64,000 nt of DNA from a virus: the IMG/VR virus record IMGVR_UViG_3300026488_000012, positions 32,001 to 96,000 of that record; one strand, written 5' to 3'. Position numbers and translations under genes: made by a program. This document shows positions 1 through 63,786 of the stretch, one piece after another (the first letter of the stretch is position 1; each line of letters starts with the position of its first letter). The notes beneath the pieces were generated by a model. The model was not told the origin of the DNA, made no database searches, and saw nothing but the letters and a program-made list of their open reading frames with translations.

Positions 1-729
1 CCTGAGACAAGATGGAAAATAAAATTCTTAGAGAATTTTGAAAAGAACTTTGGAAGAGCACCAAGATCTAGAAAAGAATTAGAAGAATACGCCGCTAGAT
101 TAGAATATATCGGCATTGATAACGAAATCGTTGAAATCTGTGCCAAATATAATTTAGACCAGGATGAAGCTGAAGATTATGATAAATTCTTCAGAAGAAA
201 TCCTGGTAAAAAATACGAATCGCTCCCATACGTATGCGTAGAGTATAGAGGTTATACATTAGAAAAGATGAACGCGTACGACAAGGAGGGTCCATTCCTA
301 GGTCTAGCGACCGCGTGTTGTCAGCATCTTCATAACTCTGGTGCAGATTGTGCTAAAGCAGGATGGAAAAGTCCCGTTAGTGCTTTTTACGTAATCAGAA
401 ATAAAGAGGGTAGAATAGTTGGACAATCTTGGGCGTGGAGATCATCCTGCGGTAAGTACATAGTATTTGATAGCGTGGAGGGTAGATCATTTGTCCCTGT
501 TGAAATAATAGCCGAACTAATCAGACTAGCAGCTAAAACTATATCGTCCCAGTATAGTCTAGGTGTACAAGAACTATTAATAGGCGACACTAACTATGGG
601 TTAACTAAGGCTCTACATAAATACTTTGGTTACCCAGAAGTTGATGAAATAGCTGAAACACCAGATTCTCTAAGCTGGGTAGACTACTGGGACGGAGATG
701 AAGGACAATGGAGAGTACCGATAAATTAA
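1..729 (+). CDS. 5'-truncated hypothetical protein with a Cys-containing C-terminal domain (possibly PcfJ/GNAT-like)
   Basis: Frame 1 is open from base 1 (PETRWKIKF...) into the 268..729 ORF, so the real start lies before the window. Motif FLGLATACCQHLHNSGADCAKAGW...FYVIRNKEGRIVGQSWAW. The fold assignment is from memory only. Confidence 0.6.
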   Translation, partial: PETRWKIKFLENFEKNFGRAPRSRKELEEYAARLEYIGIDNEIVEICAKYNLDQDEAEDYDKFFRRNPGKKYESLPYVCVEYRGYTLEKMNAYDKEGPFLGLATACCQHLHNSGADCAKAGWKSPVSAFYVIRNKEGRIVGQSWAWRSSCGKYIVFDSVEGRSFVPVEIIAELIRLAAKTISSQYSLGVQELLIGDTNYGLTKALHKYFGYPEVDEIAETPDSLSWVDYWDGDEGQWRVPIN

Positions 730-2632: not shown

Positions 2633-3169
2633 ATGAAAAGAAAAGAACTAATCAGTATTAACAAACTAGAAGATAATGTTAGAAGAACATGTAAATTAAG
2701 AATCAAAGACTTAGAGAGATATAAAACAAAGTTACAGATAAAGGTTAATCGTCTTATACACGAGTACTCTGATTACGTAAACAGAGTGATAAAAGACATC
2801 AACTTTGATTATGATTTTTATAAAGGTTTACCTAAAACCGGTGATGCAATTTCCGTAGAAAAATGGATACAGTCTATATCAGATTTACAAGCCTTAATTA
2901 ATAAATATAACGTATTAAGAGGTGTAAGAATAGGTAGCGACGATGAACAATACTACGATGAAACACCAGCTGAGATAGCGGGAGCGCTAACAGGACTAAT
3001 GAATGCCTTGTACTGGGATCTAATGGTATATGCTTCACTAGAGCAGGACCAAGAATACCATAGGAACATATTAGTGGATGGTGGCGAATCTGTGAAAAAA
3101 GTAAAAAATGATCTCAGTATAGTATTGAACAAGTATTTTAAAAATGCTAAAGCCACAGAGACTCCTTAA
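2633..3169 (+). CDS. Hypothetical protein in a self-contained promoter/terminator cassette
   Basis: 178-aa ORF with SD aaggag, early-promoter motif at 2590 and hairpins at 2535 and 3155. Confidence 0.8.
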   Translation: MKRKELISINKLEDNVRRTCKLRIKDLERYKTKLQIKVNRLIHEYSDYVNRVIKDINFDYDFYKGLPKTGDAISVEKWIQSISDLQALINKYNVLRGVRIGSDDEQYYDETPAEIAGALTGLMNALYWDLMVYASLEQDQEYHRNILVDGGESVKKVKNDLSIVLNKYFKNAKATETP

Positions 3170-3200
3170 CGTAGGAGTCTCTGTATTTTTTTTTTCTTTT
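3155..3200 (+). terminator. Rho-independent terminator
   Basis: acagagactcct / aggagtctctgt followed by a long T run. Confidence 0.8.
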
Positions 3201-3211
3201 AATACCCGTCA

Positions 3212-3223
3212 ATCGCTTGAAAT
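3212..3223 (+). promoter_or_regulatory. Putative late promoter element (ATCGCTTGAAAT)
   Basis: ATCGCTTGA also occurs at 771-779 before beta'. GCTTGAAATT/TTTGAAATT occurs on the minus strand at 26114-26123 and 19297-19307, each 20-35 nt before a virion gene. Confidence 0.4.
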
Positions 3224-3244
3224 CATCTTCTATAAGGAGTAAAT

Positions 3245-9591: not shown

Positions 9592-10320
9592 ATGGAAACA
9601 TTAGATATAACTAAGTTAAAACGTGATCCAAATTACATAAAAAGTAATCTGATTATGAAAGATGAGTTTACATTAACTAAAAAGGATACATATATAGTCT
9701 TTCCTGAAAAATATGAAAAGAAAGACCTCGCAGAGCTTGGTAACGTTTGTTTAGTAACCGGTGTATTTGCCATCGTAATGGGTGATAGATACGGAGTTAT
9801 GACGATTCCCAACCACATAGAAATAACACCTGTGGAAATAGAGCAAGTTGACATAAATGGAGATGTTTACTATAGGTTATTTATAGAAGCTAATACTGAT
9901 ATATTCAGTAATAACAACATAGTAAAAAAGAGTGACAGAGTATATAATCTGTTAGACCTATTTTTAATGCAAGGTAAAGTTCCTTGGTATATAGAATATG
10001 AAGATTTAGTAAAAGTATTTACTAACGTTGGTAAATATACAGGATTAACAGCTACTGATAAACTATTACCTGTGGAAACTATTATATCTATTATTTCTAA
10101 ATATAAAAAAGACTTAACTAAAGACTATAGACTTGTCATCAATAAACCACAAGATTTAAAAACTAAGCCTGTTGAATACGTAGGGTTAATGGACGTGTAT
10201 TATACGTATAAATCAACTGTTAGTAAACTTCTTGGTAACTTCTTTAAGAAAGCAATAGACAGTACCATACTGTATCCTGAAAAAGAGGTAACCGATATAG
10301 AGAACGTCTTAAGGGAGTAA
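9592..10320 (+). CDS. Probable virion RNA polymerase beta' C-terminal subunit (phiKZ gp176-like)
   Basis: 242 aa with LKRDPNYIK, GKVPWYIEYEDL and STVSKLLGNFF motifs recalled from this family, at the expected syntenic position. Confidence 0.72.
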   Translation: METLDITKLKRDPNYIKSNLIMKDEFTLTKKDTYIVFPEKYEKKDLAELGNVCLVTGVFAIVMGDRYGVMTIPNHIEITPVEIEQVDINGDVYYRLFIEANTDIFSNNNIVKKSDRVYNLLDLFLMQGKVPWYIEYEDLVKVFTNVGKYTGLTATDKLLPVETIISIISKYKKDLTKDYRLVINKPQDLKTKPVEYVGLMDVYYTYKSTVSKLLGNFFKKAIDSTILYPEKEVTDIENVLRE

Positions 10321-28752: not shown

Positions 28753-28787
28753 CAAGTTTATATATTATTATCTTACTAAATTGCAAT
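28752..28787 (+). promoter_or_regulatory. Putative early (vRNAP) promoter
   Basis: tcaag-N12-tatcttactaaattgcaat. Confidence 0.75.
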
Positions 28788-28842
28788 AAAGCAGCGGGTA
28801 TAGACCCGGTAAAGAATTTAAATTTATTAAAAGGAGTAAACG

Positions 28843-29085
28843 ATGGTTAGTGCATATGTAGAACAATACACAATCGGAAAAAGAGGTTTAATGTTGATTT
28901 CTATGGATGGCGATATTATCATTTTCCATAGAGAGACTATCTCAAACTTGAAAATATACAAAACAGAAGAAGGTTTAGTATTCGAAATTAAAGATACAGT
29001 TGGAGATACATATAAGTTTGTTCTAGCTGACGGTGAACTTAACAATTCAGATGTTAAACTATTAAAAGAACTTTTAGTTCTTTAA
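28843..29085 (+). CDS. Small hypothetical early protein
   Basis: 80 aa, SD aaggag, downstream of the early-promoter motif at 28769. Confidence 0.75.
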   Translation: MVSAYVEQYTIGKRGLMLISMDGDIIIFHRETISNLKIYKTEEGLVFEIKDTVGDTYKFVLADGELNNSDVKLLKELLVL

Positions 29086-29780: not shown

Positions 29781-30515
29781 ATGAGTACTAAAACAAATGG
29801 AAAAAGAAAAGTAGAGTTGGATAACATTGTAGAAGATGAAATTCTAATAATAGAAGACCCTATAACAGAGCCTAATGCGTTAAAGGCTCTTGTTGACAAT
29901 TTAGATAAACCTTATATAACACATACTGTAAGGTTTGATGATGGAAAACAAATATCTAATAAAGATATAGTATTAATGAATGATATATTAAACACTAAAA
30001 TTACAGTAGATTCCAAAACCAAGAACATTATAGATAGTATACTAACTATGATAGTCAATAGGGAATTAAAGATGTCCACTAATGTCATAAGTATTGATTC
30101 CGTGGATAACGACTTAAAAGATTTGAGACACATAGAGGATGCCTTGTTGATGATGGGAATTAACAAATCTGTTAATTATCTACAACATTTATTAAAAATA
30201 AACGTAGATATCAAATTCAAACATACAGTAACTATCGTAGAAGAGGTTAATATTATCAGAACAGGAGTTAAAATAAAGATACCTCCTGAGTTAATAAATA
30301 CGCCTATGGATATAACGAGACATAGGATAATGATCGATTTGTTAAATGACTTAGGTATAGAAAATGACGATGAAATTCCATTAGTTAAAGATAAGTTAAA
30401 CTTGCTAATGGATGGAAATATGAACCTATTTATAATTAGTAGGAATATGCATAAAAGGATAGTAATTAAATTGTTTACCATTAGTGATTGTTATGTTGGT
30501 AAAATTATACAATAA
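29781..30515 (+). CDS. Hypothetical protein
   Basis: 244 aa, SD ggaggt, co-transcribed with the Q-rich ORF. Confidence 0.8.
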   Translation: MSTKTNGKRKVELDNIVEDEILIIEDPITEPNALKALVDNLDKPYITHTVRFDDGKQISNKDIVLMNDILNTKITVDSKTKNIIDSILTMIVNRELKMSTNVISIDSVDNDLKDLRHIEDALLMMGINKSVNYLQHLLKINVDIKFKHTVTIVEEVNIIRTGVKIKIPPELINTPMDITRHRIMIDLLNDLGIENDDEIPLVKDKLNLLMDGNMNLFIISRNMHKRIVIKLFTISDCYVGKIIQ

Positions 30516-30555
30516 GACATAACCCGGGTATACGGGTTATGTCTTTTATTTTTTA
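30514..30555 (+). terminator. Rho-independent terminator
   Basis: aagacataacccg / cgggttatgtctt plus T run. Confidence 0.8.
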
Positions 30556-30574
30556 TATTTGTAATTTTTGAAAT

Positions 30575-30610
30575 TAAAAGAAAAATGACTATATATCGCT
30601 AAGATGTAAT
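30575..30610 (+). promoter_or_regulatory. Putative early (vRNAP) promoter driving the structured RNA and MYG1 gene
   Basis: taaaa-N12-tatatcgctaagatgtaat (more divergent copy). Confidence 0.55.
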
Positions 30611-30614
30611 AAAA

Positions 30615-30743
30615 CCGCAAGTCCTATCTGTCTAGTACTTATCTCCTGGTGTGGAAGGGGGAAGACACGACTAACCCCGTTGTCATATAGGGGGTCAGAA
30701 GTCTTCCCTGACGAAGGAGATTTAAGGAACGACAGATAGGCGG
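30615..30743 (+). ncRNA. Putative structured RNA (5' leader or sRNA) upstream of the MYG1-family gene
   Basis: Nested pairings: 30623-32/30731-40 (10 bp perfect), 30642-47/30715-20, 30659-66/30701-08 (8 bp perfect), 30669-78/30690-96. Hand count gives 65/130 GC over 30621-30750. Confidence 0.6.
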
Positions 30744-30760
30744 GCTACAAGGAGTCAGAA

Positions 30761-31609
30761 ATGACACAAATGAGTAGAGTAAATAAAATCGGAACACATA
30801 ATGGTGTTTTTCATGCAGACGAAATCACTGCAATTGCAGTGATTAAAATATTTACAGGTTCAAATCCTGAAATAATAAGAACCAGAGACAAAGACGTTCT
30901 TAACAATATCCTCCAAGAAGGAGGGATACTGATTGATGTTGGTGGTGAATATAACTTTGAGAAAGGGATATTCGACCATCACCATAGTAAGAATGGAGTA
31001 AATAACATGGCATCTGCTGGTATTATTGCAGATGCTCTGGGCATTACTGAAGAGAAATACCCATTATTGGTCTCATTAATCAGGGAAGTAGATGCTCAGG
31101 ACCTAGGCATTAAAAGAAATCCTGAGCATCACTTTTCAAATATAGTTAAATCGTTTAATGGATTAGCAGATAATCCATCTAATAACGATGATGCTTTTGA
31201 GAAAGCATTAGAGTTTGCAGTTAATTATATAACCACCCTTAAAAAACAAGACGAGCTAAACTTATTCTACAAAAAAGAAGTAGAAGAAACAGTAATAAAG
31301 GAAATAAACGGAATTAAGGTCGCAGTTCGTAGGAAAGATGATAAGTTTGTCCCAGCTGTAGAATTCACTGGAGAAGCCGATTTAGTACTAAGTTGGGACA
31401 AGCAACAGAACTGTTGGAGTCTCCAGGCAGTACCTCTAACCAAAGGAGACTTTAAAAGTAAATACAAAATTGTAAGTGCAGATAATCCGGTTTTCATCCA
31501 CCCGGCTGGATTCATTGCTAAAATAAAAGATACGGGCGAAGGTATCAAGTTTGAAGTTAAAGATGGAGATAGTAACAAAACCATCACCATCCCATATCCG
31601 GGAGGATAA
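30761..31609 (+). CDS. MYG1 / UPF0160-family metal-dependent hydrolase (DHH-superfamily exonuclease)
   Basis: IGTHNGVFHADE, IIRTRD, IDVGGEY, FDHHH, ASAG and FIHPAGFIA are hallmark MYG1 motifs. Confidence 0.9.
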   Translation: MTQMSRVNKIGTHNGVFHADEITAIAVIKIFTGSNPEIIRTRDKDVLNNILQEGGILIDVGGEYNFEKGIFDHHHSKNGVNNMASAGIIADALGITEEKYPLLVSLIREVDAQDLGIKRNPEHHFSNIVKSFNGLADNPSNNDDAFEKALEFAVNYITTLKKQDELNLFYKKEVEETVIKEINGIKVAVRRKDDKFVPAVEFTGEADLVLSWDKQQNCWSLQAVPLTKGDFKSKYKIVSADNPVFIHPAGFIAKIKDTGEGIKFEVKDGDSNKTITIPYPGG

Positions 31610-31637
31610 TCCCCTTGACTCTTTTTTTTTTATTAAA

Positions 31638-31663
31638 ATAACAGAGATATATATCTCTGTTAT
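31638..31663. terminator. Palindromic hairpin between the convergent MYG1 and helicase genes
   Basis: ataacagagatat|atatctctgttat, with a T run on the minus strand. Confidence 0.65.
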
Positions 31664-33925
31664 CTATTTTATTTTTATTAAAGATTCGTATATATCCTTA
31701 ATGTTGTTAATAGGTAAATGGACATAATTACTTATACTATTAACAGCTATATCTTCTGTAACTTCTTCTAAAACTTCTTCTGTATCAGGATTTTCCTCTT
31801 CTATCTCTTCTGTTTCCTCTTGTAATACTTCTTTAGGTATCTCGTAAGCAAACTTATTATCAGTTATGAGCTCTACTCTATCTTTAGAGAGATTTAATAT
31901 AAATAAATCTCTTTGGGTTATGTTAAGCTTATCACCTGTATCTAATTTTACTATATAAACAAAACATTTCATATCCTGTCCTAATCTATATATCCTAGCT
32001 ACGGTTTGGTCAAATATATACATCCTGAATGGTAAATCTAAACATATCATAACGTTAGCAGCTATTAGAGGTACTCCGGTAGATAGTGACTTATATGTAG
32101 TAACTAAAGGGTTATAGTTATTCTTTAAATCCATAAATAAGGATACTGTTTCGTCTAGCTTCTTAGTTAACTCTCCATATACTCTTAAAGGGTTGTATTT
32201 TAGTTTTTTGCATTTCTCATAGGCTATATCACATACTTCTGTATAGTTAGAGAATATCAATGTCTTCTTAGGAGTAGATTCTATTATATCTTTATACTTC
32301 ATAACCTTAGCTATCTCTTTATAACAATCTATTCTTCTCCTTAGTAAGATTTTACCTAATGCTTCTCCTAGTGCTTTTAACTTAGGATATTTAACTATAG
32401 GAGCTACATCTCTAAACTCTTTTAATAAATCACCTTCCAACATAGGTGTAATATAATTCTTCTCAAATTCATTAACAGTTCTTATTATAGGTATAGCAGC
32501 CATAAGTTTTCCATTTTCAACAAGGTTAAATACTTCCTTAACATCTTTTAAATAGTTCCTAAACATCCTATCTATCTCTATTTTGGTATAACCTCGTTTT
32601 TTCTTTTTATACCATTTGTCCTTTACATAGTTAATTATCTCTATAAATCTATTATAATATTTATCATAATCTTTAAGTAACTCTTTATGTCTTTTAGTTT
32701 TATATTCTTCCATATCTTTTTGTATAGTAGAGATTAAATACGGTTCATAATTGTCTATAGTTACTTTATATTCGGTAATAACTAAAGGAGGAAGGTTGTC
32801 TGTAGGCTTTTCTATGCGTCTTCTATATAATCCAAATCTATATTTTAGAAGATTTAAGGATACAGGGTCTGTAGATTTATACATATTTAAAAACCAGGTT
32901 AACGCATATGGGAATTTCTTATCCAGAATATATAGTAGTGGTATTAATTCCTTTTGTTCCATTTTTATAGGTGTACCTGTTAATAAAAACATATCTTTAG
33001 GGTCTAAGTAGCTAACTACTTGTAATAACGATTCAGTTCTTAAAGATTTAATATTGTTAAAATTGTGCCATTCATCTACGATTATATTAGGTTTAAGTCT
33101 TTTTAGTTTTTTAAGAAGAACTTCATCTTTAGCTAATTTCTCCAAGAATTCGTAATGAAGAATAATAAACCTTTCTCTACTTACTTTTCTATCTTTAGTG
33201 GATAATATTTTATAGGTCTGCGGTCTCTTAAATACTGATTCAGTAACTGATTTAACCCATACTTCTTCTAAGGTCTGTCTGGGAGCTATGATTATAGTAT
33301 GTTCGTATTCTAATCCTACAGATAGTGCTAAACTTACAAATGTCTTACCAGCTCCAGCTGCTGCGTCTATTAAGAACCCTCTTAAGTCTGCTAAACGTTT
33401 AACTTCCTCATATTTTTCAAAAGCAGGTCTTTGAAAATCTAAAACATCGAATTTAAGCTCCTTTTTGATTCTCTTATAGTTAATAGATGTTCTTGTTTTT
33501 ATGTATCTCTGAGATACCCAAGTCTGGGTTCTTATGAAACTTAACAAATCTTCTACATTAGTTATACCTATACCAAGGTTGGCCTCTATATCAGGATGAT
33601 TAGATATATAATCTAATACAACTTCTAATTCTAATAAGCCAAACTCTGGTATAGAGATAGTATCTCCTCTCTTACCAAATATAATATCAAACTGATAACC
33701 TGAAATAGTTAAATCATCCTCCGATAGCGGTTTTACAACCATAGATTTAACAGAACGTATTAAATCCAAATAAGGTAATTTAAATTCATAATACCTGAGA
33801 TTACGTCTATATCTATAAGTTATAGATTTATATCTTAGATAATTAAGCATAGTCATTCCTTTATTTAATTTCAATGTAACCGGTTTATGACTAATAACGT
33901 AATAGTAATAGTTAAAAAGATTCAT
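31664..33925 (-). CDS. SF2 (SNF2/DEAD-like) helicase
   Basis: Walker A AAAGAGKT, DEWH, LLTGTP, SLSTGVP and DQTVARIYRLGQ. A better SD suggests the true start may be 33850. Confidence 0.9.
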   Translation of the reverse strand: MNLFNYYYYVISHKPVTLKLNKGMTMLNYLRYKSITYRYRRNLRYYEFKLPYLDLIRSVKSMVVKPLSEDDLTISGYQFDIIFGKRGDTISIPEFGLLELEVVLDYISNHPDIEANLGIGITNVEDLLSFIRTQTWVSQRYIKTRTSINYKRIKKELKFDVLDFQRPAFEKYEEVKRLADLRGFLIDAAAGAGKTFVSLALSVGLEYEHTIIIAPRQTLEEVWVKSVTESVFKRPQTYKILSTKDRKVSRERFIILHYEFLEKLAKDEVLLKKLKRLKPNIIVDEWHNFNNIKSLRTESLLQVVSYLDPKDMFLLTGTPIKMEQKELIPLLYILDKKFPYALTWFLNMYKSTDPVSLNLLKYRFGLYRRRIEKPTDNLPPLVITEYKVTIDNYEPYLISTIQKDMEEYKTKRHKELLKDYDKYYNRFIEIINYVKDKWYKKKKRGYTKIEIDRMFRNYLKDVKEVFNLVENGKLMAAIPIIRTVNEFEKNYITPMLEGDLLKEFRDVAPIVKYPKLKALGEALGKILLRRRIDCYKEIAKVMKYKDIIESTPKKTLIFSNYTEVCDIAYEKCKKLKYNPLRVYGELTKKLDETVSLFMDLKNNYNPLVTTYKSLSTGVPLIAANVMICLDLPFRMYIFDQTVARIYRLGQDMKCFVYIVKLDTGDKLNITQRDLFILNLSKDRVELITDNKFAYEIPKEVLQEETEEIEEENPDTEEVLEEVTEDIAVNSISNYVHLPINNIKDIYESLIKIK

Positions 33926-59825: not shown

Positions 59826-62686
59826 TTAATTAACTTTAACTCATAATCCAGTTCTGGTACATATATACCAGTAAGTGTAGGTGCTAATTTCTTAGACACG
59901 GAGAACATATTACTAGTAGGAGTGTATTCATATATTTCTATCTCTCCTAAGTTATCTAAGTTTTCTACTTTAACGAACTGTATATTACTGTCGTTTAATC
60001 TGTTTAATATGTATTTATCCATATCTATTCTTTTATTAAATTTCCTAATAGCGTATTGCAAAGCTAGACCTGTTTTTCTTTTTAGTTCTTCTAACTTAAT
60101 ACTATCAGTTACATCGTCTATTACATAAAGTGTGACTGTTGGTTTTACTATAAAAGGAGTATGGAATGTTACGTTATTTTTAATAATTTCAACGTCCCTT
60201 AGATTATAAGTAGGTTTGTATAATATTTTAGTATTTTCCAGTAACATACTATTTAATTCTTCTAACTCGTTAAATATGTAGTTATCGAGTTCTAAGTATT
60301 TACTTATCATAAATGTTCTATAATCCTTATCTTTAGTCAATAAGAACTCTAATTCAAATGTTAAAATATCTATGTAGTGGTCGAATCCATACGTATAATC
60401 TATAATAGGTTTAGAGTTATCGTCTAAGATAACTTCTCCTTTTTTATGTATTAGTATAGGGTTCCCTTCTTCATCAAGAACAAGGTCTCCTTTCTTATGT
60501 AGTATTTTTACTATTTCAGTATCCTCGATTCCATCTCCATTGGTATCTATTTTTTCAAATATGTAATTACCATCTTCATCCGTAGCTAACACGTCTTCTT
60601 TATACGTAAGGTATACGTCATTCTCATATTTTTTATATATTCTAAGGTTAGGGGATACTCTATAGTTTGTAAATAAATATTTAGCTCTTTTGAATAACTC
60701 TAAAGATAAATTACTTACAGCGATAACATTTGCTACTTCTGAATCAAACTGTTCTATCTCTCTGGTATAAGTGTTATTTATTTTACCTAAGACTGTAGGG
60801 TCTGTTACATATATGTAAAGCTTTGCATTTTTTATCACATTACCTATTCTAACATGGTCTAAAACAGATATGAAATCCATTAGTTCAACAGTATCATCCT
60901 GACCTATATAATCAGAAACATTGAATCTAAACGTTATTTCTTCATCTCCTATCTCACCTTTAATAGCTATCTTAGACATACTATTATTAGGTTTAAATAC
61001 CAACATAGCCTTCCTAAAATTATTAGGAATATTTCTAAAACTATCATCTGCGTTATATCTTAATTTAAGTACATAATCCTTACCGTTTCTAAGTACCGTA
61101 GTGTTTACTAACTCTAATACAAAATTACTATTAGCATTATAGTATTCAGATTTACTATAAATAACTTTAGGAGTATTTACTTCGTATACCCTTATAAATA
61201 CTCCATCTTTAAAATCGAATATGTACTTAAACGTGTTATAGAAATATTTCTCTTTTCTAAGTACCTCCGATAAATCACCTTCTGTTAGTGTTTTTAGTTT
61301 ATCAACATCCGTTTGTGATACCAGTTTAAATTTATAACCATCTTTCTTAAAGAACGTCATAGGTCTTATTATACCTATCCCATTGTCTATAGTAACGCTG
61401 TTAGGTAAATTAGCTATTTCTTCATGTGTTATTTCTAAAGTATCCATAAATACATCTGGATTACTATACAGATATGACTGGTCCTCTATGAATACTAATT
61501 TCTTCTTAACTACGTACTCTCTCTTAAGTATCGTGTCTATGGTGTTATCAAGTTCGTATCCATATCTACTTAACTTCTCTTCTATATCGTATGTCGTTAT
61601 AGGTAACTTGTTATCTCCTGTAGTATTATAAATAACTAACTTTCTAAGATCTTCTAAATCTAACATATTTCTACCACCTGAAGTGTAACTGGATGATAAT
61701 ATTATAGGTGTGAATGAAGTTATAGCAGGTGTTTTACCAGTTATCTGTGTAGGTAATGAAAAATCCATCGTGAAATCGTCTTTAATGTAGTTATCAAAGT
61801 TTAATATAACTTCTCCTTTAGTGGTATAGATATAATTACTAATATTAGTAATGTTAAAGTTCTTAGTATATGTATCATATAGCGTAGTTTTTAGTGTTTT
61901 TTCATCTTTTAGAGAACATCTTAGTACTGGATTTTTTATATCGTATACGAAATCAGAGAAAGTTATACAGGTATCTATCTCACCTACTTCTGTGGTTAAT
62001 TTACTAAATATCGTATGGAACTGATCATTAAGTTCATATGTTTTATTAAATCCTTGAACGGGTATTATAGATTGTTTATCGTATATCATATCTAATTGTT
62101 TTAATTCTACATCGAATAGAATCCATCCGTTACCATCATTGTCTGTAACTATATGACTTTTAAGTATTCTATTACCAGGTAGCGATATACTAAGTTTATT
62201 TGGCATTAGTATAACTACTGATTTATTCGTACTTTCGAAGTATCTTATTATTACGTCGTTTAGGAACATAAAGCTATAGTAGTTTTTTACTATTATTCTT
62301 GTATACATAGGAATGGTGATTTCGTAATATTGTTCTTTTTTTATACCGAATTGTTTAATCTGGTCTATCGATATGTATATATGGAACGTTGTAATACTTG
62401 GATATGCGAATACATTATCGTATTCCCTGTTTATCATATGGTGGTATAAGTCCTCTCTAGTCGTTGCTAATGATGGATATAACTTTCTTAAGTTTATTAC
62501 CATCTGTTCTAAAAGCGTGCTACCTACGGTAGCGTTACTTTCTATTAGAAACATAAACGGATTGGTTGGGTCTGGTATATCATTACCATCCATTAAAGTT
62601 TCCATATATTTGTATAAGTCTATCTGAACCATATTAGGGTCATATGCATACTTTATTAATTCGTTTTTAATATCTAAAAATCCCAT
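59819..62686 (-). CDS. Baseplate wedge-like virion protein (phiKZ gp27-like)
   Basis: PDPTNPFMFLIE, LYPSLATTREDLYHHM, TSGGRN.L.LEDLR and DTILKREY motifs, 955 aa. Confidence 0.75.
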   Translation of the reverse strand: MGFLDIKNELIKYAYDPNMVQIDLYKYMETLMDGNDIPDPTNPFMFLIESNATVGSTLLEQMVINLRKLYPSLATTREDLYHHMINREYDNVFAYPSITTFHIYISIDQIKQFGIKKEQYYEITIPMYTRIIVKNYYSFMFLNDVIIRYFESTNKSVVILMPNKLSISLPGNRILKSHIVTDNDGNGWILFDVELKQLDMIYDKQSIIPVQGFNKTYELNDQFHTIFSKLTTEVGEIDTCITFSDFVYDIKNPVLRCSLKDEKTLKTTLYDTYTKNFNITNISNYIYTTKGEVILNFDNYIKDDFTMDFSLPTQITGKTPAITSFTPIILSSSYTSGGRNMLDLEDLRKLVIYNTTGDNKLPITTYDIEEKLSRYGYELDNTIDTILKREYVVKKKLVFIEDQSYLYSNPDVFMDTLEITHEEIANLPNSVTIDNGIGIIRPMTFFKKDGYKFKLVSQTDVDKLKTLTEGDLSEVLRKEKYFYNTFKYIFDFKDGVFIRVYEVNTPKVIYSKSEYYNANSNFVLELVNTTVLRNGKDYVLKLRYNADDSFRNIPNNFRKAMLVFKPNNSMSKIAIKGEIGDEEITFRFNVSDYIGQDDTVELMDFISVLDHVRIGNVIKNAKLYIYVTDPTVLGKINNTYTREIEQFDSEVANVIAVSNLSLELFKRAKYLFTNYRVSPNLRIYKKYENDVYLTYKEDVLATDEDGNYIFEKIDTNGDGIEDTEIVKILHKKGDLVLDEEGNPILIHKKGEVILDDNSKPIIDYTYGFDHYIDILTFELEFLLTKDKDYRTFMISKYLELDNYIFNELEELNSMLLENTKILYKPTYNLRDVEIIKNNVTFHTPFIVKPTVTLYVIDDVTDSIKLEELKRKTGLALQYAIRKFNKRIDMDKYILNRLNDSNIQFVKVENLDNLGEIEIYEYTPTSNMFSVSKKLAPTLTGIYVPELDYELKLIKV

Positions 62687-62697
62687 TTAAAACTCCT

Positions 62698-63786
62698 TTA
62701 ATTATTGTTACCATTTGTTAACTTCTCAGTTGCTAAAGAGTATGATTGACTGTCTTTAGGAACTAACCATTTAAATTCAAGTGTATCGGGGTCTATATAC
62801 GGGTAACACCTATAGTTTAAATAATTTTTGAGTAAATCATCTACTTCATACATAGAGTTCTTATCTCCTTTTATGTAATAGTCTTCGTAGTAAGGATTAA
62901 AGTATGTCTGGACTAAATTAAACTCATGGATAAGCCTAGGATCGTTATATTGTCCTCCAACGCAAACGAATTTGATATCCAGTGTTTTATTACTTTCTTT
63001 CATTATTTCGTTTCTATCGTATTCGAAATATTTACCGAGATTCATAGCTGTAGGGAACGCAGCTCCCGGTGCGAATATCATACTTACATATTTCCCTGTT
63101 TTATCTAATAGGATTATATAAAATCTCGTATTGTAGTCTAATTCATTTTCAGATATAAAATCCACATATGGAACTAACTCCCCTTCAAATACCTTACTCT
63201 CATACATAGTCCACATTTGGAATAGTAACGGTAATACCCCTGTTTTAATATTGGAAAAGGTAGCAGTAACTTCGTAAACATCATTTACTTCATAAGTACC
63301 ATCAACCATAGCATACTGTTCCCTACGTAACCCAGCTTCAGTTGTCATATGTGGTACAGCTACGTCTGGTATACCTGATAATGTTAATAATGTGTTGGTT
63401 AGAACAGGTATAAATGCTTGATATTTATCAGACAACGGACAATTAACTACTTCGTTAGTTATTAGAATACTTCCTTCTTTACTCTTAACAAATGGTCCAT
63501 ATAAATCCCATTGTAATCTCGGGTCTAACATAGTTCTAACATATGCTTCTTTACTTACAAGGTTTTTAGTTAGTAATGGATAGAACTCTCTGACATTTAG
63601 TAAATTAGGAGTAGTAAGATTTAACTGTGGTCTTGTAAAGAATACATAACCTTTTCTATATCGTTCCATAGGTATAATAGGTGTAGAATGTGTCATATTT
63701 ATGCCGTATAAGAAGTTACTGATACCCCTATCGAGTCCTCCTATATACGTATTGTCTAAAACATCGTTAAAGTTTTTTAAAACCAT
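62698..63786 (-). CDS. Tube-like/baseplate hub virion protein (phiKZ gp28-like)
   Basis: GYVFFTRPQLNL, FIPVLTN.L..LSG.PD, DYNTRFY and YP.IDPDTLEF.W motifs. Confidence 0.75.
   Translation of the reverse strand: MVLKNFNDVLDNTYIGGLDRGISNFLYGINMTHSTPIIPMERYRKGYVFFTRPQLNLTTPNLLNVREFYPLLTKNLVSKEAYVRTMLDPRLQWDLYGPFVKSKEGSILITNEVVNCPLSDKYQAFIPVLTNTLLTLSGIPDVAVPHMTTEAGLRREQYAMVDGTYEVNDVYEVTATFSNIKTGVLPLLFQMWTMYESKVFEGELVPYVDFISENELDYNTRFYIILLDKTGKYVSMIFAPGAAFPTAMNLGKYFEYDRNEIMKESNKTLDIKFVCVGGQYNDPRLIHEFNLVQTYFNPYYEDYYIKGDKNSMYEVDDLLKNYLNYRCYPYIDPDTLEFKWLVPKDSQSYSLATEKLTNGNNN

Follow-up and report, generated by a model that had tools for sequence, protein, structure and literature searches.

A lineage-restricted family of structured 5'-UTR RNA modules with a bulged-G strand signature in phiKZ-like phages from hydrothermal vents

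The window analysed here, a stretch of 64,000 nucleotides, corresponds to positions 32001-96000 (G000:C1) of a virus record of 179,975 bp whose source DNA is a hydrothermal-vent metagenome. Within the window a gene of the MYG1/UPF0160 family lies in a transcription unit whose features, in window coordinates, are the following.

30514..30555, + strand: intrinsic terminator of the upstream gene (13-bp stem and T run), the left border of the transcription unit
30580..30614, + strand: putative phiKZ-type early promoter (PWM scan, consensus match), a T/A-rich stretch followed by the AT-rich motif TATATATCGCTAAGATGTAATAAAA at 30590-30614
30623..30740, + strand: structured RNA of 118 nt, here called the rod
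30750..30763, + strand: Shine-Dalgarno (SD) sequence AGGAG at 30750-54 and start codon ATG at 30761
30761..31609, + strand: MYG1/UPF0160 (DHH-superfamily) gene, 282 aa, with HNGVFHADE and FDHHH motifs (PF03690)
31638..31673, + strand: terminator-like hairpin after MYG1

Comparison of the MYG1 open reading frame with PF03690 gave an E-value of 1.6e-25 and 90.8 bits (cut-off 22.1). Judged by its sequence the product is a MYG1/UPF0160 protein in which the DHH-type metal motifs are present, in agreement with the nuclease-family gene that a first-pass annotation of this DNA had placed downstream of the leader. The unit is monocistronic, since MYG1 is followed by the terminator-like hairpin and the next gene, coding for a SNF2/ResIII helicase, is convergent on the - strand.

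The PWM scan revealed at least 26 + strand sites of the form (T-rich)-TATATATTACTAAAnTGYAAYAAAA in the genome, among them sites before three genes for subunits of the non-virion RNA polymerase (nvRNAP). The motif contains TATATTAC, the early consensus published for phiKZ and 201phi2-1 (PMC7058600, table 2), and published descriptions of early promoters give an AT-rich motif centred at -10 that is preceded by a T-rich stretch (PMC7598289; PMC8244752). Because it matches the published consensus and fits these descriptions, the motif appears to be an early virion-RNAP promoter, which upholds the early-type promoter proposed in the first-pass annotation. By analogy with phiKZ, transcription is predicted to start near G30606, with the motif centred at -10 there. 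No sigma-70-like site was found upstream of the MYG1 leader. The standard early leader of this genome is short and A-rich, with about 45 nt from the promoter motif to the ATG. The motif-to-ATG distance is 40-50 nt in the standard early units and 163-179 nt in five units that carry the rod, so that the rod looks like a discrete module set between an A-rich early leader and the SD.

Folding with RNAfold indicated that the rod consists of five stacked helices, P1 to P5, separated by three internal loops and one 2-nt bulge. The elements are listed from the base to the apex, the last being an optional outer helix.

30623-32 / 30731-40, + strand: P1, basal helix of the rod
30634-38 (AGUAC) and 30726-29 (GGAA), + strand: bulged-G (loop E) strands, assigned by sequence signature
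30639-47 / 30715-25, + strand: P2
30648-57 (GGUGUGGAAG) opposite 30710-14 (GACGA), + strand: G/A-rich asymmetric loop
30658-66 / 30701-09, + strand: P3
30667-68 (AC) opposite 30697-30700 (AGAA), + strand: further internal loop
30669-72 (GACU) / 30693-96, + strand: P4
30673-74, + strand: AA bulge
30675-78 (CCCC) / 30690-93 (GGGG), + strand: P5
30679-89 (GUUGUCAUAUA), + strand: apical loop
30615..30746, + strand: optional outer helix P0 (CCG... / ...CGG) enclosing the rod, weak, in two of four paralogs

The minimum free energy of the rod is -57.5 kcal/mol (z -3.9) and none of 200 shuffled sequences was equally stable; the stability of the fold is thus far beyond chance. The four helices named in the first-pass annotation were recovered at their places both by RNAfold and by covariation, and its description of a GC-rich leader in an AT-rich genome is correct (GC 0.48 over 30620-30739 against 0.305 genome-wide). 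Its spacings needed revision: the rod begins about 17 nt past the predicted transcription start rather than a few nucleotides past the promoter, and its base ends 9 nt, not about 6 nt, before AGGAG. When the leader is folded in full, the SD stays largely free of pairing (P unpaired 0.67).

Searches against Rfam 15 gave no match at gathering score across the whole window, and at E<=10 none overlapped 30606-30760, the only weak matches falling on the upstream terminator; the RNA is therefore unlisted, as the annotation had supposed. A DNA similarity search of GenBank phages gave no match. The hairpin and hammerhead ribozymes, SRP RNA and the nadA motif were set aside since their strand topology does not fit and no Rfam match was obtained. 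A coding reading was also rejected: none of the frames that have a start codon stays open throughout the copies, the best frame has a stop in at least one copy, and the lengths of the copies differ by 1-3 nt.

BLAST searches followed by searches with a covariance model (R1) over the whole record revealed exactly five copies of the rod with four distinct sequences, all on the + strand. Their positions in the record are as follows.

1-117, + strand: copy 1
3116-3230, + strand: copy 2
62623-62740 (window 30623-30740), + strand: copy 3, the MYG1 leader
124328-124444, + strand: copy 4
142672-142787, + strand: copy 5

The repetition of the element in the genome had escaped the first-pass annotation. 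Each copy is placed between a phiKZ-type early promoter and the SD of a different gene, and the downstream genes are unrelated, coding for proteins of 136 aa, 255 aa, MYG1, 168 aa and 728 aa; the 136-aa gene is followed by genes for DUF7484 and S80 prohead protease proteins. Searches of the rod-associated genes against Pfam and PHROGs yielded no function except for MYG1. Identity between the paralogs is only 65-82%; compensatory change preserves every helix, and the loops hardly vary. P0 is confined, among the four paralogs, to the MYG1 copy and the copy at 142672.

Both ends of the record lie in one and the same copy, the far end together with its promoter, and their overlap of 65/66 nt indicates that the genome, of about 179.9 kb, is probably a closed circle. 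That the virus is a phiKZ-like phage is evident from its S80 protease, DUF7484 and a phiKZ-type RNAP beta subunit (phrog_3015, 3e-105). Its closest cultured relatives are only about 26% identical in the RNAP beta subunit, and no close relative was found when this subunit was used as a protein query. No genes for L7Ae, RNase III or a dsRBD protein were found in the phage.

Alignment of the four distinct paralogs gave 37 base pairs, 15 of them with compensatory changes. In an alignment of six long copies (A3), which include two from relatives described below, 94.8% of the cells pair; 25 of the 37 pairs, and 45 cells, are changed on both sides, a level reached by none of 500 shuffles. Controls in which the partner strand was slid gave 43-51% paired, and these figures are to be read with the caveat that A3 was fitted to the model. 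The competing apical hairpin of the first-pass annotation has no covariation in its favour: 72% of ACGAC/GUUGU pairs, double changes are absent, and shuffles do as well, so that the alternative folds lack comparative support. Inspection by eye showed that any pairing between the apical loop and either the 5' leader or the SD region would differ from copy to copy. G-U pairs occur on the + strand only, which indicates that the functional RNA is the + strand. The rod is accordingly an RNA structure of the transcribed strand that is under purifying selection and fixed in position beside the SD of a subset of early-type genes.

These observations bear on whether the repeat acts at the level of DNA, as a MITE-like element with P1 as its terminal inverted repeats and with no RNA function; the annotation had named an IS or MITE end as a possible identity. 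The rod does look like a discrete insertion in a standard leader, and two of its copies are identical. The compensatory stem changes between copies, with G-U pairs on one strand only, the constant orientation and constant site between promoter and SD, the absence of a transposase nearby and the absence of dispersed copies in pattern scans of IMG/VR and JGI metagenomes make such an element scarcely credible.

The copies at 1 and at 124328 are identical over 60 nt of promoter, the rod and the SD. A lower-depth variant contig from the source sample agrees with the record through the upstream gene, its terminator and the promoter to 30614, and past this point it reads AACAAAAAGGAGTCAATCATG in a short leader and then a different gene. 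Run X3 contained a relative of about 83% identity with both rod and MYG1; only part of the rod is contained in the contigs of runs X2 and X3. The genes downstream of the cassettes are unrelated and have no homologs in relatives. Taken together, the promoter-leader unit seems to behave as a cassette, being duplicated and exchanged from one gene to another.

Relatives were reached through homologs of DUF7484 (63-70% identity) and of the 728-aa protein (one homolog, 47% identity), and this protein route yielded the metagenomic contigs L024-L035. Model R1 detected two further long copies, one in L029 (1-109, 61.8 bits, truncated at the end of the contig) and one in L034 (64-194, 40.7 bits, with an extra apical hairpin); the latter precedes an ortholog of the 728-aa gene. 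Contigs L024, L027 and L028 carry a mini form consisting of P1, A(R)AGAGUAC, a hairpin of 3-6 bp, UGGAAAA and P1'. A second model, R2, derived from five minis, recognised seven minis with scores of 24-70 bits, all of them 3' of the promoter motif. The spacing from the end of the module to the SD is 1-10 nt. The base of the mini that precedes the L024 MYG1 gene is identical to that of the copy at 142672 over 12/12 and 14/14 nt on its two strands, which links the long and mini forms as homologs. Minis are kept with compensatory stem changes at orthologs of a 182-aa gene (L027 and L028) and of a 77-84-aa gene (L024, L027 and L028), and copies in the relatives also precede unrelated small genes.

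R2 gave no match, and hence no mini copies, in the genome analysed here; R1 found nothing in L024-L028 or in L038-L040; another 38 kb from relatives contains no member of the family, and a match of 20.9 bits in L037 lacks the AGUAC/GGAA core. The whole records of phiKZ, Bacillus phage AgentSmith and Burkholderia phage FLC9 gave no match with R1 or R2, and exact-pattern scans of IMG/VR and JGI metagenome contigs returned only chance matches inside coding regions. The modules constitute an undescribed, lineage-restricted family of structured 5'-UTR elements in a clade of phiKZ-like phages from vents.

The distribution largely refutes the reading in which the rod is a dedicated RNA partner of the MYG1 exonuclease, whether as cofactor, substrate or autoregulatory target. 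The rod adjoins MYG1 here and the L024 mini stands before its MYG1, but four of the five copies in this genome precede other genes, and the MYG1 leaders of the closer relatives L027 and L033 are structured but unrelated to the rod. When the MYG1 loci of seven more distant viral contigs from IMG/VR were searched with R1, including the upstream flank where the contig allows, no convincing match was obtained, the sole match being a degenerate local one of 37 nt inside the L009 MYG1 gene (E 0.98). R2 found nothing convincing in five more distant MYG1-bearing IMG/VR contigs, and R1 found nothing in the two of them searched with it. We give a MYG1 partnership almost no credence. The annotation had offered a cis-regulatory RNA or an RNA-plus-nuclease module; the former stands, in that the element is an unlisted leader RNA to which a role in cis may be assigned, while the latter is not supported, since four unrelated genes carry the RNA too.

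Comparison of the members located the most conserved part of the element. In 13/13 members the 5' strand reads AGUAC and the 3' strand GGAA without change, while the stems vary. The two strands lie at matching distances from the hairpin base across members, the core standing 10-11 bp, or one helical turn, above it in the long form and 15-19 nt above it in the minis. A bulged-G motif comprises a C-G closing pair, a sheared A-G pair, a reverse Hoogsteen U-A pair with the bulged G, and an A-A pair. By its letters AGUAC/GGAA is the strand signature of this motif (loop E, sarcin-ricin), with AGUA opposite GAA, an apical C-G closure and a position between helices. An alternative pairing UAC/GUG suggested by RNAalifold was rejected, as it fails in the copy at 62623 and in all minis.

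The other loops are less widely kept. To the core the long form of this genome joins a G/A-rich loop, a further two helices and a conserved apical loop of GUUGU type, in which GUUGU(Y)A is kept in five of six long copies. For the G/A loop, GG(UGU)GAAG opposite GACGA, a K-turn can be drawn in two copies: those at 142672 and 3116 fit as CUCUCCU-GGA-GA... opposite ...GA-AGGAGAG. The copies at 62623 and 124328 and that of L034 have bulges of 5-6 nt instead of the 3 of a K-turn, and L034 reads GACAAA, with A at position 2n where a K-turn requires G. This loop is absent from L029 and from all minis, and the extra modules of the long form may therefore be dispensable or have another role.

Loop E and K-turn modules are present in lysine, SAM-I and T-box leaders, which, together with the conserved internal loops and the multi-helix architecture, is what speaks for a sensor RNA, either a riboswitch or a thermometer, whose conserved loops would bind a ligand or melt. 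The leaders lack the expression platform that such a device would need. In whole-leader folds the probability of the SD being unpaired was 0.4-0.99 in 12 of the 13 leaders whose SD was placed correctly; there is no terminator and no covarying alternative pairing. Nor do the downstream genes have a common metabolic theme, the minis retain the loop E hairpin only, and no Rfam family matches. The accessible SD argues against any self-contained switch, and we consider a sensor very improbable. The absence of a T-box signature, stated in the first-pass annotation, was borne out: RF00230 gave no match at E<=10, no terminator lies between rod and SD, and the SD is not sequestered.

The accessible SD also speaks for a passive stabiliser or insulator, that is, a GC-rich hairpin that shields the mRNA from 5'-end-dependent nucleases and keeps the ribosome site free of interference from the coding sequence at vent temperatures, with no partner. 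The GC content of the module, far above that of the genome, its autonomy and its position before fast-evolving accessory genes are in keeping with this, as are the MYG1 genes of L027 and L033, which have other, unrelated stable leaders as if any structure would serve. A mere stabiliser would have no need of an AGUAC/GGAA loop that is invariant in 13 members while the stems drift. Moreover, about 16 nt of single-stranded A-rich RNA lie 5' of the rod and leave the 5' end unshielded, and the GC content of the minis is only 19-39%. Passive stabilisation is on these grounds unlikely, although it deserves consideration.

We propose instead that the element is a cis-acting 5'-UTR module, a candidate docking site for a trans-acting protein that would control the translation and/or lifetime of a subset of early mRNAs; we regard this as about evenly poised between right and wrong. 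The module would leave the SD exposed rather than hide it, a trans-acting protein of phage or host origin would dock on it beside the ribosome-binding site, and the docked protein would set the translation and/or lifetime of the chosen early mRNAs, so that the module would serve as a post-transcriptional operator defining a sub-regulon. Specific recognition is suggested by a non-Watson-Crick motif that never varies, by the constant distance to the SD and by the retention of the module at orthologous genes. Against a docking site and its regulon it must be counted that the searches for L7Ae, RNase III and dsRBD proteins in the phage yielded no candidate partner, that the K-turn-like loop is missing from L029 and the minis, and that the rod-bearing genes share no known function in Pfam or PHROGs. 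Antitermination is an unlikely role, since in the monocistronic MYG1 unit there is nothing to read through to.

A more specific version, to which we attach a rather low probability, is that the loop E hairpin would be an RNA address tag, the bulged G beside the SD being read by a phage factor or a phage-modified ribosome so as to give a chosen set of mRNAs made by the injected virion RNAP privileged handling in the first minutes of infection by a nucleus-forming phage. Such handling could consist in the selective translation of these mRNAs, in their export or localisation from the early infection compartment, or in a timed shut-off. A variant acting in trans would have released rods serve as abundant decoys for a host RNA-binding defence or a ribosomal factor, with the G/A loop and the GUUGU apical loop as a second binding surface.

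Release of the rod is also the essence of a further explanation, in which it would be a processing site or a 5'-UTR-derived sRNA, cut out for example by host RNase III or otherwise accumulating as a stable RNA, and drawing off a host RNA-binding factor in trans, as a decoy or sponge; five gene copies would make it plentiful early in infection. Several copies stand behind strong early promoters, and the early RNA of T7 has repeated, conserved RNase III hairpins. For phiKZ and 201phi2-1, 5'-UTR-derived sRNAs have been reported (PMC11512511). Between rod and SD there is, on the other side, no terminator or U-tract; the helices are short (4-10 bp) and interrupted, the phage has no RNase III gene, and the constant spacing of 1-10 nt to the SD points to action in cis. 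We judge processing or sRNA formation to be improbable. The docking site for a trans-acting protein remains the reading that we favour.

To our knowledge, post-transcriptional control in the nucleus-forming phiKZ-like phages is almost unexplored. What is described here is an RNA supported by covariation, with the signature of a recognisable 3D module. It is repeated on certain early messages, a defined subset, and both its long and its minimal forms are conserved in a clade that is seen only in vent metagenomes. It provides a handle on whether these phages sort or time their early mRNAs by means of an RNA tag, and it is a candidate for a new RNA family and for a portable, thermostable 5'-UTR part.

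The nearest structural parallel is the bulged-G, loop E or sarcin-ricin motif of 23S rRNA H95, of loop E in eukaryotic 5S rRNA and of the T-box specifier S-turn, which have the same AGUA(C) opposite (G)GAA flanked by helices. The rod differs from the sarcin-ricin loop in that its motif lies in a hairpin of an mRNA leader and the GAGA tetraloop is replaced by further helices; the likeness is one of strand signature. The rod can be compared with the K-turn leaders (T-box Stem I, SAM-I, the lysine riboswitch and L10) in that its G/A loop, combined with a putative S-turn, could form tandem G-A pairs beside a bulge. Unlike them it has a bulge of 3-6 nt, no Rfam match and no expression platform. Among phages, the operators of T4 RegA and gene 32, the coat-protein hairpin of the RNA phages, the lambda nut and HK022 put sites and the T7 RNase III sites are instances of a repeated early RNA element served by one trans-acting factor; to none of these does the rod have sequence or structural similarity.

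The PeSL cassettes of the T4-type phages RB49 and phi1 are G/C stem-loops that lie in or upstream of a sigma-70 promoter and act as terminators, and their modular exchange has been described (PMC2839356). In both systems cassettes of promoter and structure are repeated before accessory early ORFs and bear signs of duplication or exchange by recombination. As with exchanged PeSLs beside accessory ORFs, an identical rod cassette occurs at two loci, and the variant contig breaks at the border of promoter and leader. The rod differs in being a multi-helix RNA with an internal-loop motif that lies 3' of the transcription start, beside the SD and behind a promoter of phage-RNAP type. It has no T run, and the terminator at 30514-30555 is separate from it. 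The 5'-UTR sRNAs of phiKZ and 201phi2-1 are single-locus RNAs, for example upstream of the tail gene gp182, that arise by premature termination (PMC11512511). They are likewise structured 5'-UTR RNAs of giant-phage genes conserved among relatives, while the rod is multi-copy and has no terminator, and R1 and R2 find nothing in phiKZ. The rod is thus a new RNA family of a known general kind, that of the structured 5'-UTR and regulatory cassettes of phage early genes.

Analysis of both ends of the 179,975-bp phiKZ-like phage record (positions 1-117 and 179850-179975, outside the window) indicated that they fall within one and the same cassette, comprising the early promoter and the rod, the 118-nt folded leader RNA, and that they overlap end to end in 65 of 66 nt, so that the record probably represents a circularly permuted genome that is closed at ~179.9 kb, despite a CheckV completeness estimate of 66%. 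Comparison of window 30406-30614 with a variant contig of sequencing run X1 revealed a second phage strain, roughly 85% identical, in the source sample; it carries the same promoter, but its leader is short and the downstream gene is different.

Early-type leaders were also identified at other positions of the record:

Window 28767-28843 (record 60767-60843): early-type promoter and, 3' of it, a small GC hairpin, GCAGCGGGTATAGACCCGG
Record 113412, 121977 and 126156 (outside the window): non-virion RNAP subunit genes with the TATATATATTGTTATCTTACTAAAATGCAATAAAACTACAAGATTAGGAGG cassette

The first of these leaders is 76 nt long, precedes an 80-aa ORF and differs in structure from the rod. The promoter-leader-Shine-Dalgarno cassette TATATATATTGTTATCTTACTAAAATGCAATAAAACTACAAGATTAGGAGG is identical in the three RNAP subunit genes.

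A paralog of the rod-bearing 728-aa gene occupies window 1-729 (record 30804-32729, beginning before the window). It showed 35% identity to the 763-aa ortholog of the 728-aa gene encoded by L034, a metagenomic contig of a related phage, and the paralog's own leader is of the standard short early type without the rod. The start predicted by the gene caller at L034 191 falls within the RNA element, and the true start of the L034 gene is the ATG following AAAGGAGCTAAC. Positions 1-34 of the contig (GTCTCGTGGGCTCGGAGATGTGTATAAGAGACAG), which we take to be Illumina Nextera adapter sequence, are assembly contamination.

In the related contig L024 (27% GC), a GC-rich intergenic stretch of ~270 nt was found 5' of DUF7484 (9730-9990); it has the appearance of a non-coding RNA with structure, and an Rfam search of it returned no match at E<=1. 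In two relatives (L024 14650-14830 and L027 8850-9030) the chimallin gene has a long leader that contains the conserved sequence TATGAGAGACTAT...ATAGTYCTCGTCTRT..AGATGAAC; this may be another structured leader.

The MYG1 gene is likewise preceded by structured leaders in two related contigs:

L027 5183-5292: MYG1 structured leader, ~105-110 nt, z -3.4
L033 3178-3282: MYG1 structured leader, ~105-110 nt, z -2.4

Both leaders differ from the rod and apparently have no kinship to it; a long folded 5' UTR was present on MYG1 in all four lineages seen.
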